Source: Escherichia phage CBA6. Taken from it: 25,398 bases of DNA. Each line of letters opens with the position of its first letter. Position 1 is the first letter of the stretch. Location: the sequence record KM389302.1. One strand, written 5' to 3'. The translations under genes and the position numbers were made by a program. Below, one piece after another: positions 4,159 through 25,273 of the stretch. Below the pieces are notes generated by a model. The model was not told where the DNA came from, searched no databases, and worked only from the letters and a program-made list of their open reading frames with translations.

Positions 4159-4181
4159 GACTTTACCCTCAATTTTGAAGG

Positions 4182-4188
4182 TATTTAG
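4182..4188 (-). promoter_or_regulatory. Candidate late promoter element CTAAATA (variant of T4 TATAAATA) upstream of the gp14-like gene
   Basis: Minus strand reads tgaCTAAATAcc 23 nt upstream of the ATG at 4158. The same heptamer recurs upstream of five other late genes. Confidence 0.4.
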
Positions 4189-4219: not shown

Positions 4220-4432
4220 ATGAAGGTTGAAGATATTAAAGAAACTCGTGACGGAAGGCGTGTGAGAATTATCTGTGTGGATGCTAAAGTCGCAAATAAT
4301 TCTTATAACATTGTGGGTCTTATTAAAGGCAAAGATGGGAATGATTTTATTGAATGGTGGGATGAAAAGAACGTGGTTGATGGTTATATTCTAGCAAATT
4401 CAAATCCTTCCGACCGTGACATCAAGTTATAA
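4220..4432 (+). CDS. Hypothetical 70-aa protein on the opposite strand, inserted between the neck genes
   Basis: GAGGA Shine-Dalgarno 9 nt upstream of the ATG at 4220. Stop is followed directly by the hairpin at 4438-4457. It is the only complete plus-strand gene in the module. Confidence 0.55.
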   Translation: MKVEDIKETRDGRRVRIICVDAKVANNSYNIVGLIKGKDGNDFIEWWDEKNVVDGYILANSNPSDRDIKL

Positions 4433-8800: not shown

Positions 8801-10664
8801 GGATGAAGCTCGAAGTCACGTCCGCGCCAGTATCATTTTTGACAGATACCAATTTCCAGCCATCGTGATTTGCCAGAGGTCTACTGGTTTGGGAAGTAAA
8901 AGTCACAGACTCTGTGGTTTCAGTTATCGTCTTCGTTTTGATCGTGGCCGTAGTGCGGATCATCAGTGCCAGCAAATTGATTGACTGGTTAGCATTACCG
9001 CTACCCAGGGAAATCTGCAAAGCCGATCCCACCGGAGAACCAGTCAGTGACAAAGAGCCAGAGATATCAAATTGCGCTTCTGAACCATCGGATTTCGCAG
9101 AAGAATACAACGAAAATTCAGGAGAGAAACTATATCCCAGTGGGGCTGAAATAGAACCAGAACCGCTATTGTCCAGAGTGACTTTGTAAGTTCGGAGAAC
9201 GGTGTAGTTGATATCCACGGAACCTGTTGGCGCTAATGTTTTAACACCGAAGACCGGAAGAGAGAAGATCAGGTCTACCATAGAACTCTGGTTAAACTGG
9301 TTGGATTCCAGTTCAGCAGAGAACATGGTGATACCACTTTCTTCATAAGATACTTTGGTGATAGTGGACGCGTCCCCAGTCACAACCAAATCACGCATGT
9401 ACAGACGGAATTCAGTTGAATTGCGTTCAGCAGATATACACAACGCCGTGGCTTGAGCAGCTCCGGACGCGTTCAATAACTTGTATCGCACAGTGCGAGA
9501 TATTACTGGAACACCTTTGGAGTTCTTGGTGACCAGATAATTCCCTGTAGCGACTGCAACAGGCGTGTTATTCAGGACATCGGTATCCCGTGCCTTGTCA
9601 ACGATCACCAACTCTTCCCCGACGTTTTCGATACGACGACCGCGAACATAGGAAATACCTGGTTTCATTACAGACACGAATTTACTTTCGTCGCCGCCAT
9701 CAGCAGCATTGAATACACCACCATTGTTATTGACTTTCAAGTGTTCGCGGATGTCGATCTGATGCGTTGAAACGTTGTAATCGCCGTTGGTTTCATACGT
9801 CCGTTGAGCCAACGTGTCTTCCAGAATATTATAGGTGGACTGAGTCACCATAGACTGGATTTTACCATCACGAACTTTGGCCAGTTCAACAAAGTCTTCA
9901 ACCACAGCATCATAATCAAATCGAGATAAGACCAGATCTATTCGAAGACGATGAGCGCCTGGGGCTTTGGAATTAATCGTTCCCTGAGCATTTGAATAAA
10001 GGGATTCGTCTTCAGATTCAGTCACGATGGTTTCAGTGACTTTAAACCCGACGCGATGGGAAGAAGTGTTTGAAGTTTTATCGACGATGAGAGTCGCGTC
10101 ATCAACATCAAGGAACATTCCACGAATGAAGTAAACGCCCTTCGTCATACGAGCGACGATAGAACCAGTCACCGCAGCTGCGATACCATAACCAATACGA
10201 ATGAAGTTGTCATTGACGTCATAGGTTTGGAAATACAGATTGTCGTTGACGTGGAAGCCATCTGCATTACCCACTTCTGTCATTTCAAGGATGGCCAACA
10301 TCGTATCCGGAGCAGACAGATCACGTTCAAGAGATAGCACACGCGCTTTGGCGTTATTGTCTTTTCCCAGAACATAAAGTTCAGTAATCCCTTCCAGATC
10401 AGTGAACTCAGTGCCACCAGCCAGGGTGAATTTCATAGACACAGCGGCGTTGGTAATCGTCAGACCGCCAGGAATAACCATAGATCCATCTTTGAACAGA
10501 TGGTTTCCCAGCTTTTCAATCTGGTCTTGCAGAATAGTCTGCATCTGGTTCAGTTCACGTGTCTGAACCTTAATAGGCATCGGGCGAAAAAGAATCCGTG
10601 AAAACCGTTTTCCAGGATTCCAGTCGTCCCAATACGGGCGACGGTTTAGATTTGTAGATTGCAT
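5826..10664 (-). CDS. Very large virion structural protein (1612 aa), probably a tail fibre or baseplate component; function not assigned
   Basis: Uninterrupted 4.8-kb ORF in the late module. GGAG 9 nt upstream of the ATG, with CTAAATA and TATAAAT motifs further upstream. S/T/N/G-rich composition typical of fibrous phage proteins. No confident homologue recalled. Confidence 0.6.
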   Translation of the reverse strand: MQSTNLNRRPYWDDWNPGKRFSRILFRPMPIKVQTRELNQMQTILQDQIEKLGNHLFKDGSMVIPGGLTITNAAVSMKFTLAGGTEFTDLEGITELYVLGKDNNAKARVLSLERDLSAPDTMLAILEMTEVGNADGFHVNDNLYFQTYDVNDNFIRIGYGIAAAVTGSIVARMTKGVYFIRGMFLDVDDATLIVDKTSNTSSHRVGFKVTETIVTESEDESLYSNAQGTINSKAPGAHRLRIDLVLSRFDYDAVVEDFVELAKVRDGKIQSMVTQSTYNILEDTLAQRTYETNGDYNVSTHQIDIREHLKVNNNGGVFNAADGGDESKFVSVMKPGISYVRGRRIENVGEELVIVDKARDTDVLNNTPVAVATGNYLVTKNSKGVPVISRTVRYKLLNASGAAQATALCISAERNSTEFRLYMRDLVVTGDASTITKVSYEESGITMFSAELESNQFNQSSMVDLIFSLPVFGVKTLAPTGSVDINYTVLRTYKVTLDNSGSGSISAPLGYSFSPEFSLYSSAKSDGSEAQFDISGSLSLTGSPVGSALQISLGSGNANQSINLLALMIRTTATIKTKTITETTESVTFTSQTSRPLANHDGWKLVSVKNDTGADVTSSFILDGGQRDAGYYKANLLSTAGAISGTYTVVYQYFAHSSGDFFSADSYTSMDYKDIPNYTSSTSGAVYGLADSLDFRPKITNGTSDTDMVRPNTAVILDTEYYLPRIDAIYLADNGVFGVARGISSNNLASPAIPANSMRLYELLIPPYTPNIDDIQIRTIDNRRYTMRDIGKLETRISNVEYYTSLSQLESSAMTQQVFDPITGNPRFKNGIAADPFKDFRLIDDLSEDWMGSIDTENGRLRPFVQQNAVDMTPVGWNKVMDGMVVCNYTPEISVNQEYATTTINVNPYAVFNWEGFLKINPTTDYWFENYYVAPRVINETINTRGTVQEGSVYGTWRTVSVSDRVWEPHGAGGVWWGYRYRTTVSARDVTTYTYTDKTTTTMTGEQIVETQVIPYMREIDISFDASGLRPFTRMYAFFSGRDVNLYCKPNGGNFGDPITTDANGAVKGVFRVPQNDTIKFNTGDNVFRLTDSPVDSKSADDTLTNAEIVHKSFGKKQGIQKTFVNTRVLGYTASTSTETSTSEVVVDQWRDPIAQSFMVATKIGGEYIEGVEVFFSTKSRDVPITLEIREMENGLPSHTVITRKTLNPSEVTISTDSSGGTKFTFDYPVYLQASTEFAIVLLANTQDYNAYIAEMGKKNLLSNEYIAKQPYTGVFFTSSNGSTWSPNQMADMKFRVYRCNFAAGQNVVTFDPKLGPKQRPLGLNTLNCVSGSSVVTVFAPGHGLVAGNNVTLSELTGGCGFTPEQLNKTFTVTDASYTSFKIDVGSAADSNGQIGGDNASFLGNYLVDMFYASVTNSALEGSILKLEYRYRDATSNSMSDWAEFETDTDVALPTEGIYRQVGDFQIRATMTRSENNVYTAPMIDGDDLSVIFNSYGVDPFEDVFKYVTKDIGFDNPCSTVKLFFGAMLPSQSSMKVQVKLLRAGQEMDSVAWEDVTPTSPLVNDGSTFFEYEYDKTVASNNPFVGLKVRALVRGNRVAPPSFKDFRLIALA
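5837..5860. repeat. 24-nt exact direct repeat, copy 1 (caataagacggaagtctttgaatg), at the 3' end of the 1612-aa gene
   Basis: Identical 24-mer also at 8135-8158. Encodes the FKDFRLI motif at the protein C-terminus. Confidence 0.85.
8135..8158. repeat. 24-nt exact direct repeat, copy 2, internal to the 1612-aa gene
   Basis: Identical to 5837-5860. Encodes the internal DPFKDFRLID motif. Confidence 0.85.
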
Positions 10665-10696
10665 TTTGATGCTCCATCGAGTGCCATTTATAGAGA

Positions 10697-10703
10697 TATT
10701 TAG
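10697..10703 (-). promoter_or_regulatory. Candidate late promoter element CTAAATA (with adjacent TATAAAT) upstream of the 1612-aa gene
   Basis: Minus strand reads tataCTAAATAtctcTATAAATggcactcgatggagcatcaaaATG. Confidence 0.4.
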
Positions 10704-10725
10704 TATACAGCCAACAGACAGATAG

Positions 10726-10750
10726 AAATAAAAACCCCGCCGAAGCGGGG
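10726..10750 (-). terminator. Intrinsic terminator with a UUCG tetraloop, downstream of the 653-aa tailspike gene
   Basis: Minus-strand RNA folds as ccccgc-uucg-gcgggg followed by uuuuuauuu. Confidence 0.65.
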
Positions 10751-10757
10751 GATTTCA

Positions 10758-12719
10758 TCAACCGATTGTGAGATTAAATTCCATTTCTGTTACGACTGCA
10801 GATGGATTGTATAACGTAATTGTCCACGAAAAATCGTTAGTTTTCGAAATGACACAATATCTTCCTGTGCCTGGGGAACTAAAAGATGCCGCTAATTTAT
10901 TCATGCTTGTAAATGAATTTATCACCCAAACACCAGGAGATGTCTTCGTTACCGAACAATTAACTGCACTCGTCAGAGCACCAGAACCATTTACAATCAC
11001 TGATATTGGTTCGTCCAGAATTCTAACCACTCCGGAGTTTAATGAATATGAATTCATAACAGTTCCAATACGATTTCCCTGTAAATATGTGATGGCAGTA
11101 GAAGCCAGTCCCGTTCTATTCAACAATACATTTGTAACTCCCAAACCAGTACAACCCAATATTTGTGTGTCAGACACTAATCCAGACGTGGTGCTGGTTT
11201 GTTCACAAACCGCGTCCACAACATTACTACCGTTGTAACAATTGAAAGATACATTTATCAATTTATTTCGTCGTATTGATTTGCCTGCATTAGATTGTAT
11301 CTGTAATACACGGTTATATTGGCCAGGTGTATTAATCTGCACAAAACAATTTTGAATAACATTGTCATAACTATCAGTTAATGAAACGTTATGGTCAGAA
11401 ATACCGAAAGCAGATTTATAATCTCCATTATTGTTCATTTGAATAAAAACACCTTCAACGGTGTTATTGCTACAACCTTGTATTGCTATGACGTGGTCAT
11501 TCCCGTTAAATGCTCCTGCGGAAATAGAAACAAATTTACCACCAATGATTTTGCAGCCAGAACAACCTCTGGAAAATTTGATATTATTGTTGCCGCCAAC
11601 GACACCACCGACGTCGCCCAAATTAGCAGAACTCATTATTCCTTCACAATTTATGAATTGGAAATCTGTGGTTGGGAATCCAACACCATCTGCTGACGTC
11701 CCATGGAAATTAATCAATAACCCATTTTCCGCATAACCTTCAGATACATAGCCACCTTTACAACCCAGAACCTCCATATTCCCGCCAGCTTGAGAAACTC
11801 CAACGAATCTCGGATATGTGATTTCTGGGTACAATGCACCTATAATAACAAGGTTCCCGTGATTTGGTCCTTTAAAACCTGTATTTTCAAATACACATTT
11901 GTTAGACCTAACCCCAACACGCCGAGAATTATCAGTTGAACCATAAGATGTGTTCCCCAATCTTAATGGGGTTACTGTTGCTGTGGTTGTCGTGAAGACT
12001 ACACCCGAAACTTCAGTATAATTTCCTGTTAATTCGATAGCCCCTTTATTCGTGTCAAACGAATTCCCCAACAAATTGATTTTGTTTCCGTTGCCAATGA
12101 TGCGTTTACTGTCTAAATTGTTCACCACGTTGCTCGACAACCCAACATCTATATCTAAAATGATCGTATTATACACATTTAGAAGATCATTCAATATATT
12201 TGAAACGTCTTCGCCAGAAGAAACCCAATTAGATATGTATGTTTCTTTCTCGCCAATATTATTTTTTACAAAAATCCAAGCTGAACCAGAAATACCACCA
12301 GTATTTTCCAACTTTTGGGTAGAGGGAACAATTTTTGGAAGAGACCCACCCCAACGATAAAAACAATTATTATGGCGTATCATTTCATTCTTAGTACGGA
12401 TTGTAAACCCATCTGAAAACTCTTCCGTCATTTCGATAAATTCGCCGCGCAATACAGCCAGCGCACCCAAATCTACAGTGCCTCCGGAGTGCGTGAGGAT
12501 GCCGTCGACTAAACTAGTGACCGTTACAGCACCAATGTTAGAAGGAAGAGCATAGGCACGTTGGGTCACCTTATCGTAGATCACTTTATAACCAGACAAG
12601 GACTGCCCTGATTTCGCATAAACGACTTCCGACTTTTTACACCCAAATTTACGAGCAATACTGTCTTTGTTCGATTCTTTTGAAGTAGAACCTTTTGGTT
12701 GAGCAAATTGCGGATTCAT
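10758..12719 (-). CDS. Tailspike protein, putative polysaccharide depolymerase (653 aa)
   Basis: N-terminal module (ARKFGCKKSEVVYA...YKVIYDKVTQRAY...YRWGGSLPK) is shared with the other tailspikes. The rest is N/G/S/T-rich with short repeats typical of a parallel beta-helix. AGGAG Shine-Dalgarno. Confidence 0.7.
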   Translation of the reverse strand: MNPQFAQPKGSTSKESNKDSIARKFGCKKSEVVYAKSGQSLSGYKVIYDKVTQRAYALPSNIGAVTVTSLVDGILTHSGGTVDLGALAVLRGEFIEMTEEFSDGFTIRTKNEMIRHNNCFYRWGGSLPKIVPSTQKLENTGGISGSAWIFVKNNIGEKETYISNWVSSGEDVSNILNDLLNVYNTIILDIDVGLSSNVVNNLDSKRIIGNGNKINLLGNSFDTNKGAIELTGNYTEVSGVVFTTTTATVTPLRLGNTSYGSTDNSRRVGVRSNKCVFENTGFKGPNHGNLVIIGALYPEITYPRFVGVSQAGGNMEVLGCKGGYVSEGYAENGLLINFHGTSADGVGFPTTDFQFINCEGIMSSANLGDVGGVVGGNNNIKFSRGCSGCKIIGGKFVSISAGAFNGNDHVIAIQGCSNNTVEGVFIQMNNNGDYKSAFGISDHNVSLTDSYDNVIQNCFVQINTPGQYNRVLQIQSNAGKSIRRNKLINVSFNCYNGSNVVDAVCEQTSTTSGLVSDTQILGCTGLGVTNVLLNRTGLASTAITYLQGNRIGTVMNSYSLNSGVVRILDEPISVIVNGSGALTSAVNCSVTKTSPGVWVINSFTSMNKLAASFSSPGTGRYCVISKTNDFSWTITLYNPSAVVTEMEFNLTIG

Positions 12720-12750
12720 AATAAGAATCTCCTGTTTTTCTCTAGTAAAT

Positions 12751-12767
12751 ACCCTCCGAAGAGGGGT
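12751..12767 (-). terminator. Hairpin with a UUCG tetraloop between the 926-aa and 653-aa genes; possible attenuator or weak terminator
   Basis: Minus-strand RNA folds as accccuc-uucg-gagggu, followed by only a weak U tract. Confidence 0.35.
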
Positions 12768-12773
12768 ATATTT

Positions 12774-15554
12774 TTAAATAGAAGAATCCAATATACGGTA
12801 ACTAATTAACTTATTAGGGTCTACAGGATTAATCAGGTTGTAGTACCGTGAAGCTACATAATCATTCTCAGAAGAGAACATACCAACATACACTTTAGCA
12901 CCTACACCAGAACAGGCATCCCCACCAGCATTGCTATCCGAGAAGAATGTTAATGAAGAAGTTAATCCGAATATAGAATTAAATGGTACAGCTAAATAAG
13001 CGCCTCGGAATGACCGTCTGATTCTCTTACCCGTCTGAATATTAAGAATACTCCACCAGAAATATCCAGGTTTAGCACCAATAGCTATATGATATGGCAC
13101 ACCACTTTGTAGTTTAAGGTCGTTAGGTAAATCCCCAGATAAAATTTGGGTTGTACCATCGCCCCCCAATAGCAAAGCAATTGTTTGTTTTCCGGAAGCG
13201 TCTATAACTAATTGAAGATGAAGACTGTTGGATGTATCACTAAACCCTGAACCAATGGCCATGAAGTTAAATACTTCAGCTCCAGATATGGTAGGTACTA
13301 CAACAGCAGCCATGGTAATACCTTCTGGACCTGCTGTTCTTGAGTACAGTAATTTATCTTTGTTGGCTTGTGATAGTCTCAGACCATTTACTTGCCCTAC
13401 AGAAGATGGGACACTTACATAAACAGGTGTAGTGCTAACACCATCAAATGTAGGGGTCTCGTTCATGGTTTGCAAACCAGTCTTGGAATAATTAACCAAT
13501 CCGTTAATGCTCAGGTCGGAATTTGTGGGGTTGATAATATTGTTATCACCAATAAAGTTAATGCCCATATAACCAGTCTCAACCACACCATTAATGGTGA
13601 CGCTGCAATCATTAGACAGGAACTGAAAATTGCCCGCACTAGAGTTAGCACCTGAACCACTATTCGCGGCATAATTGAGTCCTACGAATCCGTTGATAAC
13701 TGCATCACTTTTGTTAAATACGATGTTGTAGAAAGTGTTGTTAGCGTTGATGCCGTTACGATTGGTGTTCAATCCGTTCATGGAAATTGAATATGAATCG
13801 CTAATCTCAATGCCATTCCCGCCACAATCTTGTACCTCAATACCATTAATAACCATATTCTGGCTATTATTAATAGTAATGCCTGGGAACTGTCCTACTG
13901 TACCATAAGGTTGCCAGTTAGCCCAAATGAATTTACCACCAATAATACGACCATTACCACAACCATCAAGAACCAGACATTGTTTACCGCAGGTATTAAC
14001 CTGGATATTTGTCCAAGTCCAATCAGTAGTAGCACAACGGACGCCCACCTGATTGATGTGGTTGACTAAAAGAGAATCTGTAGTAACACTAAAGTTACCA
14101 CTATCAATATTTAACCCATATTCATCAAAACCTGCTATATGGACCTTAGAAATACACAAGTCGCGTCTTGGGTCTGCGGTAGTGTGGAACGGATAATCAG
14201 CTGAGAGACCTGAAGGAGTTTCTATATAGATACCTGTTGTACCCGCAGTAAATGATGTGCCTTGTTGTGCACCTGTGCCATATACCCCAAAGGAGTCTAA
14301 TACAATAAGGGAGCATGTATCTTTTATGGTAATACAATTCCCAGTAGCAGAAGGCAACTGATGCAACCTGGAGTAATGTAATCCAGACCCATAAATAGAC
14401 GACGTATTATATTTTAACCGGATATTGCTAACGTAATGTACACCAGTTAATTGTGTGGCCTTACCACTGTCCACACAAGATTGTACTGGAATAGTATCAT
14501 CATTAGAACCGCCCAAAGCACCAAACATGAATGGGTTAACTCTATCAGCATTAACACGTAACCAGGCTGCGCCTCCAACAGTTTTGATCACAGTGCCGTT
14601 ATCATCAGTCTTTCCTGTACCATCAATTAACGCACGGAATACCCCTCCACCAAGAAGAGTACCCGCAGTGTGTTGCTTAAGAATAATGCGTTGTCCATCC
14701 ATAGTGGGTTCAGTATTCCTGAGATCAGCAACAGAATGGCATTCTCCGATATACTTGGCACCATCATTGCGCCCCAGAGTGTTTATCACATTAATAAATG
14801 AATCTTCTAAAGGCAACAAATCCACTACAACATTACCTGGATTATAAGTAAGTTGCCCATTACTAACAGAAGAAATCACTGAACCATCAGGGATAGTTGG
14901 TAAACCATAAATAATCTGCGCCGCTGAATCATAAACAACTTTCTTGTCGTCGAGTAAAGATATGGTATCAGTGCTGACAATGACTTCAGAGTCTTTTACG
15001 TTAGCCGAACGGGCAATTTCTTGGATACTGCGATCGAACGCCGGACTGATGTTCGGTTGTTTAACAGACATCTCCGCAACAACCCACACCCCTGCAGTCA
15101 GCGCAGTTTGTAAGGAAACTTTCCCAGTCGTACTGTTGTATGAATATTCTATATCAGGAGTTTTGTACTCACCACCGATATAAAGAGACTGGACACCATA
15201 AGAAGTAAAGTCAGGCGTGAATTCAGTTTCTCCACCCACGGCTTGAAATTTGTATATTCGAATACCTTTAGAAGTATCTTCTGGTGAAAGAATTTTATCG
15301 AATAAGCAATACACAACATCGCCTTTGGACAATGCGCGCCCGAGATTCAACGTATTCCCGTCTATCTCGAAGTTGTCTAACGGAACTTGCATGCCGCCGT
15401 TAATTGTGATAACACCAGTGACAGGATAGAAAGGTAGAGAAAAGAAAGTTTCTCCACCGACACTTGATTTATAAGTGAAAGGAATCTGGTGGGGAGCTGT
15501 GACTACGCCGCCGAATAATTCTTCTACATTTCTGGTCATTTGAAAATACCCCAT
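12774..15554 (-). CDS. Tailspike protein with a T7 gp17-like N-terminal anchor domain and beta-helix body (926 aa)
   Basis: N-terminus IPFTYKSSVGGETFFSLPFYPVTGVITINGGMQVPLDNFEIDGNTLNLG fits the pattern of podovirus tail-fibre N-terminal anchors. Central region has tandem NG-rich beta-helix coils. The start may instead be the second ATG at 15539 (MTRNVEE...). Confidence 0.7.
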   Translation of the reverse strand: MGYFQMTRNVEELFGGVVTAPHQIPFTYKSSVGGETFFSLPFYPVTGVITINGGMQVPLDNFEIDGNTLNLGRALSKGDVVYCLFDKILSPEDTSKGIRIYKFQAVGGETEFTPDFTSYGVQSLYIGGEYKTPDIEYSYNSTTGKVSLQTALTAGVWVVAEMSVKQPNISPAFDRSIQEIARSANVKDSEVIVSTDTISLLDDKKVVYDSAAQIIYGLPTIPDGSVISSVSNGQLTYNPGNVVVDLLPLEDSFINVINTLGRNDGAKYIGECHSVADLRNTEPTMDGQRIILKQHTAGTLLGGGVFRALIDGTGKTDDNGTVIKTVGGAAWLRVNADRVNPFMFGALGGSNDDTIPVQSCVDSGKATQLTGVHYVSNIRLKYNTSSIYGSGLHYSRLHQLPSATGNCITIKDTCSLIVLDSFGVYGTGAQQGTSFTAGTTGIYIETPSGLSADYPFHTTADPRRDLCISKVHIAGFDEYGLNIDSGNFSVTTDSLLVNHINQVGVRCATTDWTWTNIQVNTCGKQCLVLDGCGNGRIIGGKFIWANWQPYGTVGQFPGITINNSQNMVINGIEVQDCGGNGIEISDSYSISMNGLNTNRNGINANNTFYNIVFNKSDAVINGFVGLNYAANSGSGANSSAGNFQFLSNDCSVTINGVVETGYMGINFIGDNNIINPTNSDLSINGLVNYSKTGLQTMNETPTFDGVSTTPVYVSVPSSVGQVNGLRLSQANKDKLLYSRTAGPEGITMAAVVVPTISGAEVFNFMAIGSGFSDTSNSLHLQLVIDASGKQTIALLLGGDGTTQILSGDLPNDLKLQSGVPYHIAIGAKPGYFWWSILNIQTGKRIRRSFRGAYLAVPFNSIFGLTSSLTFFSDSNAGGDACSGVGAKVYVGMFSSENDYVASRYYNLINPVDPNKLISYRILDSSI

Positions 15555-15640
15555 AAAGGATTTGCCAATATGGGGTATTTAGTCTGAACTAATAAAATTT
15601 TATGAACAAAGGTATGATAAAAACCCCGCCGAAGCGGGGT
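15548..15640. repeat. About 90-bp intergenic cassette, copy A
   Basis: Near-identical to 17678-17770. Contains a palindrome (aaatacccca / tggggtattt), the CTAAATA motif, and the UUCG-loop terminator. Confidence 0.8.
15576..15582 (-). promoter_or_regulatory. Candidate late promoter element CTAAATA upstream of the 926-aa tailspike gene
   Basis: Minus strand reads cagaCTAAATAcccc, 21-36 nt upstream of the candidate ATGs. Confidence 0.4.
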
Positions 15641-15647
15641 TTTTATC
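15616..15647 (-). terminator. Intrinsic terminator with a UUCG tetraloop, downstream of the 675-aa tailspike gene
   Basis: Minus-strand RNA folds as ccccgc-uucg-gcgggg followed by uuuuauc. Confidence 0.65.
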
Positions 15648-17673
15648 AATCGGCCGTTTTGATTGGTGAATACAGCCCGCCTCCGCGATGAATCCATGCA
15701 TAAACGTTATCTGTAGTTGGGGTTATCGCCGAACTCCGATAGAACATAAAACCAACAGGAGCACCGCTATAGTTAGGCATGGCATTATGTTTGCCTTTCG
15801 CTTTGTCCCACCCGCAAAACGTTGGCATTGGCGTTGCATGATATGCTGACGCATACACGCCGCCTATAGCAATCGACTTACCAGAATTTGTAGTAATCAT
15901 AATACGAGATGCTTTTGTTCTATCAACAGGTGCTGAAATTTTGTATAATCTCCAGCCATTTCCCATGTCGTAGAACTTAGTAGGATCACCGTAAATAGAA
16001 CCCTGTCCATCTGCCGATTGAATGTAAATGGAGTTAGGCTCACCACGCACAAACAGGGCGGCTCGAACGAAACCTGTAGCTGAACGAAGGCAGTTGATAG
16101 CAAAGTATACTTGTTCCGATACGCTTTCGTACCCTACATATCTACCGCATCCTGAAGGCTCATTTGCATCGGTTCCAAAAACCAAACCAGAATTAAGCCC
16201 ATTGAAGTCTACAGGATATCCGTTATTGTTAATAACACTCCAGTCACCACTTTGGCAAAGGTTTGAACCGCTCATGGATATAAAGTCACCACCCTGCATT
16301 CCAGCAGTATGGTCACTGAACATCGCGTGGTTCATATAGTGCATTGAACTTGCCATCATGCCGAATTGGCAACGATAACCGACAATGGACCACGGACCGC
16401 GGATTTTACCGTTTCCGTTTACTTCGCCATATAGACCAATGACGGTGTTATGCTGCGCAGGTACAGACACGTTGTCTAGAACATACCCCGCCGAACCACT
16501 AGCGTCCAGACCGACGAATGTGTTCGCATTACCTTCAGTATTACCACCTTCTGGAACCCATGTATGAGAACCTTTAATAAGAACTGAACCCACACATTGG
16601 GTGTATACGTTTTGATTACAAGACCCGGAAGATATATCAATAATAATTTGCCCGCCACCGGATGTGGTTCCAGCACGAATACGCGTGAAGTTATTCCAGT
16701 AACTACCACCGCGCCAAGGAATTAAGCCTGTAGGCGTAGTTTCTATACCGCCTTTTAACGTGAAGTTTGCCGAGCAATCTATGTTAGATATGTTATGAAA
16801 TTGTGCACCTTGAACTAACATATTACGACAGCTAATACCCTGTATGTCCAAAGAACGCGCATGAAGTATTAAAAAATCCGCATCAGGGATAATACCAAGA
16901 CACTCCACATTACAACGAACAATAAATTGTGCGTAATAAGCGTGATAGCCGGACAAATTGGCTATTGAAGTTTTGTAAATTCCTTTTGGTATGAATAACT
17001 TTCTTCGGTTTTTACCATACTCAACGAGAGCATTATAATCACTGTTAATCGCATCCAGAGCGGCACAAATAGCTGCTGTGTCATCCGTGACCCCATCCCC
17101 TACGGCACCCCATCCTCGAATGTCACCTTCATCACGCCAGCGAGCCATCTGCAATTCTGGGTAAAGAGTGGCTCCACTTGGATTAGTAATCTGGCTTCTT
17201 AATGACGCATCACCAACACTAACCCATGCACCTAAATCAACGCCGCCTGAGTTATCGGGTGTAGAACCAGCGGCAACTACCTTTGGCAAAGAACCATCCC
17301 ATCGATATTTTTCATCATCGTGAACAAGAAGTTCATTTTTCACATTAATGGTATGGCCGAAATTAAAAGAACCAGGTAAAGTCACATATTCTTCGCGGCT
17401 TACTGCTAATTCCCCAAGGTCTACAGAACCAGCGGAATGAGTGAGGATAGCTCTTTCATCCAGACTAATTGCAGTTGTCCCTGAAACAATACCGGAAGGG
17501 AGAGAATAAGCCCGTTGGGTAGACTCATCATAAATTACTTTAAATCCACTGAGATCAATACCGACAGTGAAATAAACGACTTCGTCTTCTTTGACACCGA
17601 AATTTCGAGCGATAGATTGTTTGTTAACTTCTATGGAAGTAGAGCCGCGTGGTTGATTGAATTGAGAAATCAT
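15646..17673 (-). CDS. Tailspike protein, putative depolymerase of the pectate-lyase-like beta-helix type (675 aa)
   Basis: Shared N-terminal attachment module (ARNFGVKEDEVVYF...FKVIYDESTQRAY...YRWDGSLPK). GWGAVGDGVTDDTAAICAAL matches the hallmark N-terminal motif of pectate-lyase-superfamily beta-helix enzymes. Confidence 0.75.
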   Translation of the reverse strand: MISQFNQPRGSTSIEVNKQSIARNFGVKEDEVVYFTVGIDLSGFKVIYDESTQRAYSLPSGIVSGTTAISLDERAILTHSAGSVDLGELAVSREEYVTLPGSFNFGHTINVKNELLVHDDEKYRWDGSLPKVVAAGSTPDNSGGVDLGAWVSVGDASLRSQITNPSGATLYPELQMARWRDEGDIRGWGAVGDGVTDDTAAICAALDAINSDYNALVEYGKNRRKLFIPKGIYKTSIANLSGYHAYYAQFIVRCNVECLGIIPDADFLILHARSLDIQGISCRNMLVQGAQFHNISNIDCSANFTLKGGIETTPTGLIPWRGGSYWNNFTRIRAGTTSGGGQIIIDISSGSCNQNVYTQCVGSVLIKGSHTWVPEGGNTEGNANTFVGLDASGSAGYVLDNVSVPAQHNTVIGLYGEVNGNGKIRGPWSIVGYRCQFGMMASSMHYMNHAMFSDHTAGMQGGDFISMSGSNLCQSGDWSVINNNGYPVDFNGLNSGLVFGTDANEPSGCGRYVGYESVSEQVYFAINCLRSATGFVRAALFVRGEPNSIYIQSADGQGSIYGDPTKFYDMGNGWRLYKISAPVDRTKASRIMITTNSGKSIAIGGVYASAYHATPMPTFCGWDKAKGKHNAMPNYSGAPVGFMFYRSSAITPTTDNVYAWIHRGGGLYSPIKTAD

Positions 17674-17706
17674 GATAATGCCCCATAAAGGATGACCAAT
17701 ATGGGG

Positions 17707-17713
17707 TATTTAG
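17707..17713 (-). promoter_or_regulatory. Candidate late promoter element CTAAATA upstream of the 675-aa tailspike gene
   Basis: Minus strand reads cagaCTAAATAcccc, 33 nt upstream of the ATG at 17673. Confidence 0.4.
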
Positions 17714-17745
17714 TCTGAACTAATAAAATTTATGAACAAAGGTAT

Positions 17746-17770
17746 GATAAAAACCCCGCCGAAGCGGGGT
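17746..17770 (-). terminator. UUCG-tetraloop hairpin, third copy of the conserved terminator
   Basis: Same ccccgc-cgaa-gcgggg sequence as at 10735-10750 and 15624-15639. Confidence 0.55.
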
Positions 17771-17776
17771 TAATGA

Positions 17777-17929
17777 GAAGCGCATGAACAAGAATATCGC
17801 GCAGAAAAGTCAGGTAAGCGCATAAAGGAACTCGAAGCGGAGAACGCCAGACTACGGCAGCAACTGGACGCGGCGAACGCGCAACTGTATTTTATTCTGG
17901 AGAATCTTAAGACGCAGCAGGTGGATTAA
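17777..17929 (+). other. Start-less 51-codon open frame encoding a coiled-coil-like peptide; possible gene remnant or acquired fragment
   Basis: Frame reads EAHEQEYRAEKSGKRIKELEAENARLRQQLDAANAQLYFILENLKTQQVD and ends at TAA 17927-17929. There is no in-frame ATG/GTG/TTG after the upstream TGA. The segment looks GC-richer than flanking phage DNA and is followed by a strong terminator. Confidence 0.3.
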
Positions 17930-17933
17930 GGAA

Positions 17934-17964
17934 AAGGCCCCGTAAGGGGCCTTAGTTTTATTTT
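17934..17964. terminator. Strong bidirectional intrinsic terminator
   Basis: aaggcccc-gtaa-ggggcctt followed by agttttatttt on the plus strand. It also lies just downstream of the minus-strand core tailspike stop at 17958. Confidence 0.7.
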
Positions 17965-20900
17965 GTACTAACGAAATCAAATTCGTGAAGAGCCATTGAA
18001 CCTGATGATATTCTTGCATCTAGTAAGGTGCCATCAATGGAAATTAACTTTTTATTCGCAATTGTTCCTATAAGAACACCATTACTAAAAAACTGAACTA
18101 TACCAGGTCCTTTACCGTTGTATTTAGCGGTTAAAGCGCCCTTCATTGGAGCTGAAGGTAAAGCAATGACGGTCTCTACTCCAGCAACGGATATAACACC
18201 ACGTATATCACTCCCTGTATTAAATCTGAATCCGAAATAGTTTCCTGATTCGAAACTTCCGGAATGTAATAGTCCTCCTGGTATGTTTTGCATGCTCCAT
18301 GCGATACTAAAGGCGCGGTAGTTGTTTGTCTCAAACTCATACGTTAATCGATGTTTTCTTGTTACACGATACCGACAAGTTCCACCAGAACTTGCTGCTT
18401 GCATATATAACCCATCATCCTCGAAATAAGTAAATGTGTCCGCAGGCTGAACTGTTGTTTTAGTGAATTTATCATGGTCCTGGAAAAGTGTATGGTAATG
18501 CGTTATGTCGTGGCGAGCGAATGCGTTCACACCCATGATTGTTTTAGATGCTTGTTCTATAATAAAACCAGCCATAACGCCATCAGAATACATTTGCGCT
18601 TTTTGACCAATAACAGGATGAAAATCATTCGCGATAATAGCCCCACCAATCGGCAGCGCGACATATTCGGTTAGCACCCCAGATGCTGGTGGTAGATTAT
18701 CAAGTTGGGTGCTGTTATAGTTAATAATACCGCCGTGTTTTGTTACTAATCCTGCCTTATTTATCGCGTTTCCAAATTGCGGCGATTCAACGCTTATTGT
18801 ACTGTTGTAAGCCTCAATGCATTTATCGACGCCTACGCCGTTGAATGATGGTTGAAATACGCCACCGCTGGTGCAGCCATAAAATTCAATGGATGCGTTT
18901 TCGTCAGAATGCGTGCGCCCCTTGAAGTTAATCTGTTCAATAGATGGTGAATATGGGGTTCCGCCACAGTTGAACAGTTGAATAGAGTTAAGGCTAACTT
19001 TGCTTGGGTCTGCTGACCTGCTCCCAATTTTTATTCCGGCTTGCTGGCTTGAACTAGGAGGGAACAATGGCGTACACCCACGCTTACTGCGAACAACGAC
19101 ATCCTCAGGAGTACCGGTGTTGCCGTAATTATCTGCAATACTAATTACAATTCGCTGCCAGTAATTGTTTGGAATGGCATCAACGGCATCTTGTACAGTG
19201 GGGTAATCTTCCGGAACCATGAGTGTTACAGGCATCGTGTAAATACCTGGCACTGTTGACGAGTTAACACCAAATGGGTGAATGTAACCACGATACGGAT
19301 CATTACCTCCGATAGTATTGATAAACCCTTCGATGCGCACTTTTGATGTATCAGTGTACAGATATCCACACTCGCCAATATCTACGCGGAACTTCGCAGG
19401 GATAGTCAGATCTTCTGTAAATTTCACTGGAACATTGACAAAAACACGACCATTACCAGAAGCTATGGCGCGTTTGAAAGCCTGCGTGTAGTCTGGTGCC
19501 GCTGGGTCTCCTGGCTCAACAAATGCGCGAAGGTCATAAAGTCTTTCCTGCTGACCGCCAGGGATTAAAAAACCTTTATCTCCTGTTAATTCAGTTCTTA
19601 ATGATGCATCACCAACGCTAACCCATGCACCTAAACCAACGCCGCCAGTTGTTGTCGGAGTTGAGCCAGGAGCCACAGTTTTAGGAAGTGTCCCATCCCA
19701 ACGATACTTACCGTTCGTATGGGTGAGTAATTCATTTTTAACATTGATAACAGCACCAGAATCAAATGTCCCAGACAAGGTAACATATTCTTCACGAGAT
19801 ACAGCTAATGCGCCCAGATCAACACTACCAGCAGAATGCACAAGTACAGCCGAAGAACTAAGGCTGACTGCCGTGGTTCCAGTCGGTAGCTCTGGAATAA
19901 AATATGATCTCTGTGTTACTTTATCATAGATAACTTTATACCCGCTTAACACCGCACCAACACTAAAATAAACAACCTCTGTATCTTTAACATTGGTTAC
20001 ACGAGCCACTTCCCGCAAAGTATAATCAATTTGATTATAGATGTTTGGCGTTCCATTGATAATTACAACAACTTCATCCTCTGCATCCAGTTCTTGCGCA
20101 AGAGTGATTTTACTGGTTAATGGATCAAATGTGAACCCCAGATTTTTATACTGGCGACTTCCGTTTATATCAATGGCCGGAACATCATCGACAACGATGT
20201 CTAACGTGATTTCGGTTTCACCACCAATCGCAGAACCCCCATTATAGACCCAGGTAATCGTAGAAGAACTAGAACCACCGCCATTACCCAATTGAATAGG
20301 AGTATATTCAATCACCTGAAGTTCTGTGCTGGCTGGCAAAGAAGGACTGAAAGTGATCACATTCCCATCTAGTGAATATTTGGATTCCGCAAGACGTTTT
20401 CCGTCAGCATACACGTCCACGATTGTTGGTGGCGTATTGAGAGTGACAGCGCTTGTTTCAGACGCCAAAATTTGTGTAAAAATCTCACGACTGTAGACAC
20501 GGCCTTGGCCAAGGCCGACGCCGGATGTGACAACCCAACCTTGTTCAGGCCCAGACCAAGTGAAAGTCGCCGACACGTTATCGGTGGATATCGTCATATC
20601 TTCGGTGGAGCCGTAAAGGTTATTTCCCGCTGGAGATACAGTCAATGGGTAAGTGGCGAATTTTCCATAAGCATCACAAATAGTAACGGAATCCCCAACA
20701 CGTGTAGGGGGAGGGAGAACCACTGTAGATGCCCCTGTGGTGTTATTAATGAGATAGCCGCGACCTTCTAACAAATTGCTAGAGGGAGCGTGAGGGAGCG
20801 TTTCCCAGCGTATTCCACCGCCCCCCCAAAGACAACCAACCACCGTTTTCGTAATAACCTTCAAATTCATCGCTATCAGGATTGTAACGTACAGAAGATG

Positions 20901-21051
20901 GAAGACCTGCAACTTCAGTATCTTCAGGGAATGTCATTACGGCACCAGGGGAATGCTCAATAGTGCCGGAGTTGTTGAAGCCTTTTATGTTCGAAGACTC
21001 AGAAGTTTCTAAACCCAAAGGGAAAAGAGGCTGTGTTGGTTTGTTAGCCAT
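17958..21051 (-). CDS. Core tailspike with a T4 gp10-like N-terminal baseplate-attachment domain; reading frame broken at a G7 homopolymer (about 1030 aa if fused)
   Basis: The 90-aa ORF (20779-21051) has a native-looking N-terminus (...VRYNPDSDEFEGYYENGGWLSLGG). After a one-base frame change at the tract it continues into the 984-aa ORF (GGIRWETLP...GRGYLINNTTGASTVVLPP...). The nominal N-terminus of the 984-aa ORF has no ribosome-binding site. Downstream are T7 gp17-like modules, a complete copy of the shared tailspike attachment module, and a beta-helix body. Confidence 0.65.
20821..20827. repeat. G7 (plus-strand C7) homopolymer tract at the frame junction of the core tailspike gene
   Basis: Minus strand reads TTG GGG GGG CGG. 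Deleting one G gives the in-frame fusion ...GGWLSLGGGGIRWETLP... Confidence 0.9.
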
Positions 21052-21088
21052 TTGTAATACCCCTAAATGTATTCATGTCATCTAGGGG

Positions 21089-21095
21089 TATTTAG
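21089..21095 (-). promoter_or_regulatory. Candidate late promoter element CTAAATA upstream of the gp10-like core tailspike gene
   Basis: Minus strand reads aaaaCTAAATAcccctagatgacatgaatacatttaggggtattacaaATG, with a tacccct(a) / (t)aggggta palindrome. Confidence 0.4.
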
Positions 21096-21097
21096 TT

Positions 21098-24910: not shown

Positions 24911-24950
24911 GATAATCTCCATCACCTGAGTTTGAATATGGTGTTGAAGA

Positions 24951-24957
24951 TATTTAG
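24951..24957 (-). promoter_or_regulatory. Candidate late promoter element CTAAATA upstream of the gp6-like gene
   Basis: Minus strand reads ctttggCTAAATAtcttc, about 40 nt upstream of the ATG at 24910. Confidence 0.35.
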
Positions 24958-25273
24958 CCAAAGGGAATCAAAACGCTCTCGCGCGTTAATTTATTCGAAT
25001 ATACTCGCGAGGGGGCTGACGCCCTCGCTCGTAACACCGCCTTGACAGGCAGTCCCATTCCGCAGCCATGGAGGCTGCTTCTCGTTGTTCGTTAACACTC
25101 ACAACTCGAAGGGCACCGCGTTAAGATACAGTTTCTTGATGTTGTAGAAAAGTAGTTTTTACCTATTAATAATCGCTGTCATTATTTTATTGGCCTTTCT
25201 TGGGGTTATATTCAATAAACATATTCCCAATATAATAGTGGGGACATTTAATTAATTTGACGAGGCTCAGGAA

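Follow-up and report, generated by a model that had tools for sequence, protein, structure and literature searches.

The two cassettes of ~95 nt that flank the tailspike gene TSP3 are probably ordinary intergenic control units, from which the next gene would be translated only from its own late transcript. We infer the translational effect from the sequence elements of the cassettes, their geometry and conservation, their predicted folding and the covariation of their pairing arms. The window, which is the whole stretch of 25,398 nt that was analysed, contains the TSP1-4 cluster of a Kuttervirus (four tailspikes, matched to the clusters of relatives), and the source phage is a ViI/CBA120-like member of the Ackermannviridae. 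The cassettes are not a new kind of element.

Tailspike genes and cassettes

The minus strand carries all genes around the cassettes (Table 1). TSP2 was conserved at 93-97% among relatives. In TSP3 the N-terminal 159 aa were conserved, and the C-terminal module spans 15646-17196. PF18668 was present in TSP1, TSP3 and TSP4, and matches in the PDB were to CBA120 TSP2 and TSP3. The TSP2 reading frame of 926 aa has an in-frame upstream ATG at 15554 and its next ATG at 15539; annotations in relatives use either one, and the solved CBA120 TSP2 chain starts at 15539 (MTRNVEE...). In the phage collection, the C-terminal module of TSP4 (17958-19585) had no DNA match, and that of TSP3 gave one short, marginal match only (~165 nt, 17072-17235), which lies at the TSP3 domain junction and whose partners are podovirus tailspike genes. 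The only other DNA match in the search for donors of the two modules was to the fragment 17816-17963. The bidirectional terminator of the foreign insert lies at 17934-17953. The VSiP protein, encoded beside the matching small gene, was considered as kin of the TSP4 C-terminus and was unrelated by blastp.

Table 1. Positions of genes and intergenic elements in the window.
Feature	Position	Strand	Remarks
TSP1	10758..12719	-	653 aa
TSP2	12774..15539	-	921 aa counted from second ATG
TSP3	15646..17673	-	675 aa
TSP4	17958..21051	-	broken by 1-nt homopolymer frameshift
Intrinsic terminator after TSP3, upstream end of cassette 1	15615..15648	-	core CCCCGC-UUCG-GCGGGG and U-run
32-nt spacer ATACCTTTGTTCATAAAATTTTATTAGTTCAGA	15583..15614	-	cassette 1
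CTAAATA, putative gp55-type late promoter of TSP2	15576..15582	-	family motif CTAAATAcCcc
Inverted repeat before TSP2	15544..15580	-	5' arm AAATACCCCATA 15580-15569; 3' arm TATGGGGTATTT 15555-15544
Intrinsic terminator, upstream end of cassette 2	17752..17771	-	terminator pattern scan
CTAAATA, putative late promoter of TSP3	17707..17713	-	motif match
Inverted repeat before TSP3 (start 17673)	17677..17710	-	3' arm TATGGGGCATT with SD GGGG
Foreign insert between TSP4 stop and cassette 2	17772..17957	+	siphophage small-gene 3' fragment and bidirectional terminator
CTAAATA (21095-21089) and 14-bp hairpin AAUACCCCUAGAUG/CAUUUAGGGGUAUU before TSP4 (start 21051)	21056..21095	-	
Hairpin CTAAAUACCUUCA-aaau-UGAGGGUA before gp14-like neck gene (start 4158)	4164..4188	-	design as in tailspike cassettes
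CTAAATA and imperfect hairpin before gp6-like baseplate gene	24911..24957	-	AUCUUCA pairs with SD UGGAGAU
Third terminator copy (10750-10735) and CTAAATA (10703-10697)	10697..10750	-	before 1612-aa VrlC-like gene
Terminator-like UUCG hairpin after TSP2, upstream of TSP1	12746..12771	-	hairpin 12765-12752

The cassettes (15548-15641 and 17678-17771) were ~97% identical when aligned on the minus strand, 15641-15548 against 17771-17678, with three substitutions and two one-base indels over ~95 nt. Each consists of AACCCCGC-TTCG-GCGGGGTTTTT, a 32-nt spacer, CTAAATACCCC and the palindrome AAATACCCCATA-N13-TATGGGGTATTT, and this confirms the two near-identical copies of a UUCG terminator, CTAAATA and a palindrome described in the original prediction. 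They are paralogues flanking TSP3 that have been kept nearly identical. In the 17678 copy the 3' arm reads GGGGCATT, with a single A.C mismatch (17680) that only this phage has. The 5' arm before TSP2 overlaps the promoter, and the 3' arm includes the Shine-Dalgarno sequence (SD) GGGGT at 15552-15548; in general the 3' arm covers GGGG(T), 7-8 nt ahead of the likely start codon. The palindrome had been said to enclose the start codon, which did not hold: before TSP2 only the upstream ATG at 15554 is enclosed, and in the 17678 copy the TSP3 start lies 4 nt past the 3' arm.

Three terminators were called by the pattern scan (15648-15615, 17771-17752 and the predicted third copy, 10750-10735). All three have the G+C-rich stem-loop and U-run of a Rho-independent terminator just past a stop codon. 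Among relatives the loop and stem differ (TTCG, TTTG, TTCA, TAAT) and the pairing is retained. The spacer is kept in both cassettes of Kuttervirus and Agtrevirus and is not kept in Limestonevirus, Taipeivirus or the Yersinia phage; it was weighed as a functional element and set aside for this limited conservation. Inspection of the conserved spacer by eye gave only a poor match to a -35/-10 pair, and sigma-70 promoters were not enriched in the window (22 found versus 27 expected). Rfam returned nothing at the gathering threshold over the whole window, and the weak sub-threshold hits to RsmY, istR and the Leu leader (15540-15716) were terminator look-alikes. A MITE or mobile repeat was also rejected: only two full copies exist, their syntenic positions are fixed in every relative, the inverted repeats form internal hairpins, and the cassettes have no terminal repeats.

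The elements predicted upstream of two other tailspikes fared differently. The one before TSP4, with both CTAAATA and a hairpin, is a true relative; it reads CTAAATACCCCTAGATG-N9-CATTTAGGGGTATT-acaa-ATG and starts 2 nt past the preceding gene's stop codon, and no terminator intervenes. Before TSP1 (12719) the UUCG terminator-like hairpin is present, but CTAAATA is absent upstream of the gene, which has an ordinary AGGAG ribosome-binding site instead. The unit before the VrlC-like gene has no SD-masking hairpin.

A putative late promoter within a predicted SD-masking hairpin

CTAAATA occurred nine times in the window versus 3.7 expected. Seven of the nine were on the coding strand, and six of these seven were intergenic (~5% of the window) and immediately upstream of ORFs. 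The longer form, CTAAATAcCcc, was reportedly first described by Adriaenssens et al. in 2012, in Arch Virol 157:2035. It is a published Ackermannviridae regulatory motif (PMC7283392) and resembles the T4 late promoter TATAAATA: the TAAATA core agrees with T4 at 6 of 8 positions, with a C in front. Promoters of the T4 late type are TATAAATA-like boxes that have no -35 element and lie a short way upstream of late genes. TAAATA sits 29-48 nt ahead of the start codons of genes for tailspikes, neck, baseplate, sheath and scaffold, and in CBA120 it lies 18-75 nt upstream of 30 of the 202 genes, many of them structural. Homologues of gp55, gp33 and gp45 are annotated in CBA120 (orf120, orf084 and orf163), outside this window, and likewise in UPM2146. 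T4 late promoters precede the start site by about one helical turn and are AT-rich downstream of the box (PMC2988020). In 2011 the late promoter of the ViI group was not yet identified (Kutter et al. 2011), and our literature search found no transcript 5' ends, transcript maps or promoter assays for any Ackermannviridae phage. By analogy with T4, CTAAATA would be used by the gp55 homologue, with RNA starting ~6 nt past TAAATA.

The 5' arm of the palindrome is the promoter itself. In the mechanism that we propose, the Rho-independent terminator would end the upstream tailspike transcript, and CTAAATA(CCCC), as the Ackermannviridae version of the T4 late promoter dependent on gp55, gp33 and gp45, would start a new one a few bases downstream. 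The putative promoter box, together with the bases just behind it (AAATACCCCATA), is the reverse complement of the region downstream where the ribosome binds (TATGGGGTATTT). Because the 5' arm is the -10 box of the promoter, the late mRNA of the gene itself would not have the hairpin at its 5' end; it would be unstructured and, lacking that arm, would have its SD free. RNA arriving from upstream would carry both arms and form a stable hairpin that hides the SD, so that translation would be essentially confined to the gene's own late-promoter transcript and insulated from upstream transcription. Such RNA may come from leak-through of the terminator or, for TSP4, from a polycistronic baseplate mRNA; with no terminator between TSP4 and the upstream ORF, long RNAs would be expected. 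The original prediction of a fold at the mRNA 5' end that regulates translation is thus kept as to the SD-masking fold, which is predicted, and corrected as to its place, which would be in upstream transcripts only and not at the 5' end of the late mRNA.

Some observations speak against this mechanism. For TSP2 and TSP3 a strong terminator lies 35 nt upstream, so little read-through RNA may exist there to repress, and the hairpin is found on only about a third of candidate late promoters. At TSP4 the hairpin could be unfolded by a ribosome that terminates 2 nt ahead of it, and its role there might be to impose translational coupling instead of shutting the gene off.

Pairing was scored in CBA120 with one point per base pair and half a point for G.U. 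A helix of at least 7 was found in 10 of 30 promoter-gene pairs, and nearly all such helices have a 5' arm that starts 1-3 nt into TAAATA and a 3' arm, containing GGGG(T) or GGAGG, that lies within -17..-1 of the ATG. Cognate pairing exceeded non-cognate pairing: 0 of 20,000 permutations reached the observed mean, and the count of helices of at least 7 was also higher (p = 0.003). Only 1.6% of pairings with the ribosome-binding regions of non-promoter genes reached 8. An annotation-free scan found the design at 13.5% of TAAATA sites in CBA120 and 14.5% in Taipeivirus UPM2146, versus 0.7-4.2% of the sites of nine control hexamers.

Predicted folding energies were -15 to -22 kcal/mol for read-through leaders, with z from -2.1 to -4.2, and -3.7 to -7.2 kcal/mol (z -1.0 to +1.0) for leaders begun 6 nt past TAAATA; the comparison is trivial in part, since folding always weakens as an RNA gets shorter. 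The values for read-through and predicted late start were -21.9 (z -2.85) and -4.5 kcal/mol (z +1.0) for TSP2, -16.2 and -3.7 kcal/mol for TSP3, and -20.4 (z -4.2) and -3.7 kcal/mol for TSP4. The leaders of the gp14-like neck gene and the gp6-like baseplate gene gave -14.9 (z -3.0) and -19.4 kcal/mol (z -2.6). The probability of an unpaired SD was below 0.25 in 11 of 30 promoter genes with long leaders, as compared to 6.4% of the remaining 172 genes (Mann-Whitney p = 5e-4); none of the 30 late-start RNAs had a value this low.

The arms differ by gene (CCCC/GGGG, CCTTCGC/GCGGAGG, TCCTCGCT/AGTGAGGA, CCCATAAC/GTTATGGG). Covariation was compared between two full genomes only, those of CBA120 and a Taipeivirus, where the RuvC-like gene shows a double change from A-U to U-A, the peptidoglycan-binding gene a shifted wobble and TSP4 a change from G.U to G-C. 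One Taipeivirus orthologue masks its SD with another arm, of 12 nt, that lies ahead of the promoter and leaves the promoter in the loop. Part of the complementarity falls on invariant promoter bases (AAATA/TATTT), and that part therefore cannot covary. Across five lineages of Ackermannviridae the stems are kept while the loops vary (effective loop ~4 to 13 nt), and the part conserved family-wide runs from promoter to ATG and does not include the terminator or spacer. The design is not specific to tailspikes, since it precedes about a third of the TAAATA-preceded genes of CBA120 and orthologous Taipeivirus genes. Our literature search found no description of a promoter-embedded hairpin for Ackermannviridae. 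The evidence is evenly poised on the wider proposal that throughout the family about a third of late promoters form the 5' arm of an SD-masking hairpin, with the 11-mer CTAAATAcCcc a composite of promoter core and anti-SD and translation promoter-dependent genome-wide, including at three of the four tailspikes. The four tailspikes must assemble into one branched complex.

Module boundaries and other readings of the cassettes

Boundaries were compared in seven Kutterviruses and in a survey of ~270 phage records. In cassette 1, alignments from the downstream gene stop at 15644/5 (where similarity ends in most Kuttervirus records), 15639, 15588-15600 or 15582-4, and in cassette 2 at 17771/2, 17733-6 or 17713; none in either set crosses into the C-terminal domain of the preceding gene. 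Similarity thus ends within the cassettes, between stop codon and promoter and next to hypervariable modules, which on the alignments places them at the 3' edge of swappable receptor-binding modules. The other edge of the variable blocks is intragenic, just past PF18668/TD1 (17197; 19586-19606), and the TD1 'GTTAVSL' has been proposed as a tailspike recombination site (Sorensen et al. 2021, PMC8432352).

It is nevertheless unlikely that the cassettes serve mainly as homology arms, that is, as docking sequence for swapping receptor-binding modules or tailspike genes between phages or positions. That role would agree with the several distinct junctions between stop codon and promoter, with an opposite boundary at a domain common to TSP1, TSP3 and TSP4, and with the import of the TSP4 module and donor debris right to the cassette edge. 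The two copies in the window also have the derived bases GGGGTTtTTATcATACC in common, which orthologous copies in relatives lack, and this suggests gene conversion between them. However, the conserved flank runs on for 575 to ~2900 nt, over the entire downstream gene or N-domain, so the cassette adds little to it, and the one import with a visible footprint (17772-17957) joins the cassette without homology, at 17771/2. Modules were not shared across positions: among nine loci no HSP of at least 500 bp at 80% identity or more linked different TSP positions. The promoter-hairpin unit also precedes non-tailspike, non-variable genes across genome and genera, family-wide conservation falls on that unit and not on terminator and spacer, and a similarity boundary marks the edge of a variable block rather than a crossover site. 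Of the predicted homology arms, what survives alignment of the relatives is the position of the boundaries; the cassette is probably not a dedicated recombination arm.

We also regard as rather improbable that the palindrome is some other RNA element of upstream-derived transcripts, either a fail-safe terminator or attenuator (a stem, then UAUUUU) or a 3'-end stabiliser. Its 3' arm does lead into a U-rich tract (GGGGUAUUUUC), short-loop CBA120 versions such as AAAUACCCCCAAAAUUGGGGGUAUUUUU are terminator-like, and a palindrome-like hairpin (12765-12752) acts as the TSP2 terminator. The tailspike versions, however, combine loops of 9-13 nt with only four G-C pairs, and the terminator scan did not call them; the 3' arm consistently covers the SD, at -17..-1 relative to the ATG, and the Taipeivirus redesign retains the SD pairing without the U-tract. 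Very improbable is an action of the inverted repeat in DNA (as the site of a dimeric late-gene regulator or as promoter structure), or its origin as a by-product of a C-rich promoter consensus and a G-rich SD: the 5' arm does coincide with the published 11-nt consensus and invariant bases make up part of the complementarity, but arm spacing ranges from ~2 to 17 nt and arms that vary by gene stay complementary, so that a hairpin fits and a fixed protein site does not; two thirds of TAAATA sites have no inverted repeat, which is therefore not needed for promoter function; cognate pairing exceeds non-cognate; and, T4 late promoters being AT-rich past the box, CCCC is better explained as an anti-SD arm.

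Under the preferred reading, that of intergenic control units, the choice of intergenic bases to keep matters in tailspike and module swaps, and the four exchangeable tailspikes are what the Ackermannviridae (CBA120, ViI, Det7, S117 and relatives) are studied and engineered for. The unit from promoter to ATG always goes along with the downstream gene, natural junctions are located on the terminator side of the cassette, and the hairpin would probably keep an inserted gene from being expressed from read-through RNA.

Comparison with known systems

The terminators resemble other C(UUCG)G-tetraloop terminators, with a G+C-rich stem of 6-8 bp, a UUCG loop and a U-run, and none of the three copies is unusual. 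The 5' boundaries of the variable blocks lie at the end of PF18668, the domain of the exchange site proposed by Sorensen et al. 2021 (PMC8432352); that account describes an intragenic site and conserved flanking genes, with the words 'intergenic' and 'promoter' absent, and the cassettes add a matching 3' boundary. The motif itself is identical to the published CTAAATAcCcc and occupies the same places ahead of TSP2, TSP3, TSP4 and further genes. The accounts consulted give the bare, unexplained motif; our comparison suggests a testable reading, in which CTAAATA is the promoter core and 'cCcc' the anti-SD arm, the latter in the hairpin-bearing subset only.

The closest parallel is found in T4, where the genes e (lysozyme), soc, 49 and I-TevI have a hairpin that sequesters the SD or AUG and a late promoter in its 5' strand, and where translation from late transcripts only has been established by experiment (Uzan & Miller 2010, PMC3014915). 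As in these genes, a TATAAATA-like late promoter lies in or beside the 5' arm and the SD in the 3' arm, and long upstream transcripts can fold, whereas late transcripts would lack the 5' arm (here by geometry, with the start taken from T4). Among the CBA120/Taipeivirus examples, one stands before the gene of a RuvC-like resolvase, which is functionally analogous to T4 gene 49, and another before a peptidoglycan-binding protein gene. Unlike in T4, the -10 box itself makes up most of the 5' arm, and the design, predicted here from sequence, is found on about a third of candidate late promoters, including those of three of four tailspike genes and of neck and baseplate genes in late operons, whereas in T4 a handful of genes, lying within early regions, have the hairpin. 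This suggests a much wider use of the T4 'late transcript only' switch in the Ackermannviridae and, if true, would make a mechanism known from a few genes of T4 a general means of insulating late and structural genes.

Tailspike locus and intergenic cassettes

All long ORFs of the window lie on the minus strand. The region matches ~255 Ackermannviridae genomes, Kuttervirus for the most part, and any single record covers at most 52% of 10600-21200. Gene order was set by comparison with the annotated CBA120 locus and six other Kutterviruses, and runs on the minus strand from a gp6-like baseplate gene through two conserved genes, the tailspike genes TSP4, TSP3, TSP2 and TSP1, and a VrlC-like gene to the neck genes. 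Pfam placed the tailspike N-terminal domain PF18668 in TSP1, TSP3 and TSP4, and the N-termini match the solved structures of CBA120 TSP2 and TSP3. TSP4 is present as two overlapping ORFs (21051-20779 and 20912-17958), split by a 7-G run on the minus strand (20821-20827) that has 6 G in SJ2, Guerrero and CBA120; the split reflects either a sequencing error in the homopolymer or a true frameshift within the N-terminal domain. Between the gp13-like and gp14-like neck genes, what appears to be a gap of 300 nt is occupied by an opposite-strand 70-aa ORF (4220-4432, plus strand). The matching gap is unannotated in CBA120, and Klebsiella phage UPM 2146 has an annotated opposite-strand 70-aa gene at that place.

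Genes and conserved blocks of the window. Blocks are conserved versus seven Kutterviruses. MFE and z are predictions for read-through leaders, which include the promoter, as in RNA coming from upstream.
Feature	Coordinates	Strand	Remark	MFE (kcal/mol)	z
gp6-like gene	24957 (hairpin unit before the gene)	minus		-19.4	-2.6
TSP4	21051-17958	minus		-20.4	-4.2
TSP3	17673-15646	minus		-16.2	-2.1
TSP2	15539-12774	minus		-21.9	-2.85
TSP1	12719-10758	minus			
VrlC-like gene		minus	1612 aa; between TSP1 and neck genes		
gp14-like gene	4188 (hairpin unit before the gene)	minus		-14.9	-3.0
Conserved block	7600-10737/10750				
Conserved block	12451, 12569 or 12721-15644/5				
Conserved block	17197-17771/2		to 17733/6 in CBA120 and SJ3		
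Conserved block	19586..19606 onward				

The cassettes before TSP2 and TSP3 are near-identical, as originally predicted, with 3 substitutions and 2 one-base indels over ~95 nt in the minus-strand alignment of 15641-15548 and 17771-17678. Both carry the UUCG-loop terminator (AACCCCGC-UUCG-GCGGGGUUUUU), called by a terminator scan, followed by a 32-nt spacer, CTAAATACCCC, an inverted repeat (AAATACCCCATA ... TATGGGGTATTT), 4-8 nt and the ATG. The third terminator copy was confirmed at 10750-10735, with another CTAAATA after it, as was the related element before TSP4 (21051), which reads CTAAATACCCCTAGATG-N9-CATTTAGGGGTATT-acaa-ATG. The CTAAATA motif has 9 copies in the window versus 3.7 expected, and 6 of the 7 coding-strand copies fall in intergenic DNA (~5% of the window). 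The element proposed before TSP1 (12719) has a terminator-like hairpin (12765-12752) but no CTAAATA. The palindrome, said to enclose the start codon, covers the Shine-Dalgarno sequence (SD) instead of the working start: ATG 15554 inside it is an upstream in-frame ATG without an SD, the solved CBA120 TSP2 chain begins at the next ATG (equivalent to 15539), and the corresponding ATG of the TSP3 copy is out of frame. The cassette observation is real and well described, and its parts are of known kinds: the terminator, a motif already published for the family, and an SD mask embedded in a promoter in the manner of T4.

The TSP1 leader (12720-12773; equivalents in loci L012-L016) had no CTAAATA promoter in any genus examined. 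Ahead of TSP1 there was in every case a hairpin whose U-tract is poor and whose stem shows covariation between genera (CCCCTC/GAGGGG, GCCCTCT/AGAGGGC, GGGGG/CCCCC), and a conserved ACTAGAAAAACA…AGG leader comes after it. Together these features suggest that TSP2 and TSP1 share a transcript, with the hairpin between them acting as an attenuator or stabiliser.

Module borders around the cassettes

The original prediction took the cassettes for homology arms used in swapping tailspike modules, with exchange breakpoints inside them. Alignment of ~270 records showed that similarity does end in the cassettes, but the one visible import junction (17771/2) was without homology. In cassette 1, before TSP2, alignments entering from TSP2 ended at 15644 in most Kutterviruses; the other end points were 15639, 15588-15600 and 15582-4. 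Of these, 15582-4 coincides with the 5' edge of CTAAATA and is the typical end point for genera other than Kuttervirus. None of the ~270 records gave an alignment extending past 15646. In cassette 2, before TSP3, alignments to the same records stopped at 17771, 17733-6 or 17713. Judged by these stop positions, the promoter-to-ATG unit is always kept with its downstream gene, and the junctions are scattered between stop codon and promoter. The opposite edge of each variable block falls directly after PF18668/TD1, the site proposed for module exchange by Sorensen et al. 2021, who make no mention of intergenic DNA (PMC8432352).

Two derived bases are common to both cassettes of the window and are not found in relatives, which suggests conversion between the two copies and lends something to the reading of the cassettes as dedicated arms. 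We rank that reading as secondary, given that the conserved flank runs hundreds to thousands of bases past the cassette, that the promoter-hairpin unit is equally conserved at non-variable genes, that the one visible import junction lacks homology, and that cross-position module sharing was not seen among nine loci. Because they are conserved regulatory DNA, the cassettes form the 3' border of exchangeable modules, but exchange is not their purpose.

Between the TSP4 stop and cassette 2 lies a 186-nt insert (17772-17957). Its plus strand carries part of a small coiled-coil gene, of which the final 50 codons (…KELEAENARLRQQLDAANAQL…) are present, together with a bidirectional terminator (AAGGCCCCGTAAGGGGCCTT). 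Both match the tailspike-adjoining region of Guernseyvirinae siphophages (VSiP, K1-type Kagunavirus), and the insert looks like debris from import of the TSP4 receptor-binding module from a siphophage of that type. At the TSP3 domain junction, ~165 nt (17072-17235) match tailspike genes of Kayfunavirus/K1F-like podoviruses at ~78%. For the C-terminal, receptor-binding parts of TSP3 (15646-17196) and TSP4 (17958-19585), 50,697 phage records yielded practically no match at the DNA level, and the phage therefore probably carries two undescribed tailspike specificities.

The CTAAATA box and the predicted hairpin over the SD

The CTAAATAcCcc motif reportedly goes back to Adriaenssens et al. 2012. 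A published account quotes it, with one other regulatory motif, as unique to Ackermannviridae (PMC7283392). Its core, TAAATA, is also that of the T4 late promoter TATAAATA; the T4 promoter works without a -35 element and lies roughly one helical turn before the start site (PMC2988020). Both CBA120 and a Taipeivirus have annotated gp55, gp33 and gp45, proteins of late transcription. Across the complete CBA120 genome, TAAATA was found 18-75 nt upstream of 30 of 202 genes, many of them structural (gp48, gp5, gp26, gp19, gp18, gp22, gp14, gp6, VrlC, TSP2-4). Kutter et al. 2011 stated the late promoter of the ViI group to be unidentified, and no transcript mapping for Ackermannviridae phages was found in the literature; CTAAATA is therefore treated as a putative late promoter.

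At 40455-40510 of CBA120 (L008), two TAAATA boxes that overlap and are complementary to each other lie within ~55 bp (TATAAATA on one strand, TTTAAATA on the other) and serve the divergent genes gp2 and tail-tube-like orf081, in what looks like a pair of late promoters set back to back. Upstream of the gp6-like promoter, 24962-25160 (minus strand) is G+C-rich, palindrome-rich non-coding DNA (…GCGAGGGCGTCAGCCCCCTCGCGAG…AACGCGCGAGAGCGTT…), partially conserved across genera and with no Rfam match; it may encode a structured RNA or bind protein.

Helices pairing the promoter segment with the bases immediately ahead of the ATG were scored at 1 point per base pair and half a point for G.U. Ten of the 30 TAAATA-gene pairs of CBA120 scored at least 7, and in nearly all of these the 5' arm begins 1-3 nt inside TAAATA and the 3' arm lies on the SD, at -17 to -1 of the ATG. 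The arms differ from gene to gene with complementarity kept (CCCC/GGGG; CCTTCGC/GCGGAGG; CCCCCAA/TTGGGGG; TCCTCGCT/AGTGAGGA; CCCATAAC/GTTATGGG; CCCCTAGAT/ATTTAGGGG). Cognate promoter-SD pairs exceeded shuffled ones, both in mean score (reached by 0 of 20,000 permutations) and in the count of helices scoring at least 7 (p = 0.003); the ribosome-binding regions of motif-less genes gave a score of 8 in only 1.6% of pairings. In an annotation-free scan the arrangement, a promoter box forming one arm of an SD-masking hairpin, accompanied 13.5% of the TAAATA sites of CBA120 and 14.5% of those of Taipeivirus UPM2146, versus 0.7-4.2% for nine same-composition control hexamers. Within the window it precedes TSP2, TSP3, TSP4 and the gp14-like and gp6-like genes, with the CTAAATA boxes at 15576, 17707, 21089, 4182 and 24951 respectively, and is absent before the VrlC-like gene.

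The SD was predicted to lie within a stem in all five read-through leaders, whereas the same leaders started 6 nt after TAAATA reached just -3.7 to -7.2 kcal/mol (z -1.0 to +1.0). For 75-nt leaders genome-wide in CBA120, the SD was predicted to be mostly paired (unpaired probability <0.25) in 11 of the 30 promoter-proximal genes versus 6.4% of the other 172 (Mann-Whitney p = 5e-4); among RNAs begun at the predicted late start the count was 0 of 30. The contrast between long and short RNAs is partly trivial, because short RNAs fold less; that between promoter-proximal and other genes is not. The TSP3 hairpin of this phage has C at 17680 (minus strand) versus T in all relatives examined, giving an A.C mismatch that lowers predicted stability to -16 kcal/mol.

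The TSP2, TSP3 and TSP4 hairpins were found in Kuttervirus, Agtrevirus (AV101), Limestonevirus (RC-2014), Taipeivirus (UPM2146) and a Yersinia phage, with stems preserved and loop sequences variable. Between CBA120 and UPM2146 (~65% DNA identity), the RuvC-like gene changes from AAATACCCATAAC/GTTATGGGTATTT to AAATACCCATATC/GATATGGGTATTT, a full A-U to U-A compensation; a G.U wobble is shifted by one position at the peptidoglycan-binding gene, and a G.U pair becomes G-C at TSP4. In the UPM2146 orthologue of CBA120 orf229 the arrangement is replaced by TGATCCTCAGTG-[tggCTAAATAccccataatc]-CACTGAGGATCA, where the SD (GAGGA) is still buried, by sequence upstream of the late start, and the promoter is now in the loop. 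This redesign and the variable arm spacing argue for an RNA hairpin selected for SD masking in upstream-derived RNA, and against the inverted repeat being a duplex protein site. They also speak against the complementarity having arisen by accident where a C-rich promoter faces a G-rich SD. The 'cCcc' of the published consensus was found in the hairpin-bearing subset of CBA120, and T4 late promoters are AT-rich at that place (PMC2988020); because of this confinement and the T4 composition, we read cCcc as the anti-SD arm and not as part of promoter recognition.

Proposed action and comparison with T4

RNA arriving from upstream would carry the promoter arm, and the hairpin would then mask the SD. 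The idea that the palindrome folds in mRNA and regulates translation thus appears right in modified form, with the SD predicted to be masked in upstream-derived RNA but the start codon not covered. At TSP4 the hairpin follows the stop codon of the preceding gene (21098) with no intervening terminator, and polycistronic RNA must therefore carry the structure, which could be opened by a terminating ribosome (translational coupling). A strong terminator precedes the TSP2 and TSP3 hairpins, where the mask would act on leak-through RNA only, and for this reason the functional argument is weaker for these two genes. The added value is evidence for a family-wide design that explains the 'cCcc' of the motif.

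In T4, long early transcripts of e, soc, 49 and I-TevI hide the SD or AUG in a structure whose 5' strand contains a late promoter; the late transcripts do not include this strand and are efficiently translated (PMC3014915). The Ackermannviridae arrangement is the same, except that the -10 box itself is an arm, that about one third of candidate late promoters have the hairpin, and that it precedes structural genes, including three of the four tailspikes.
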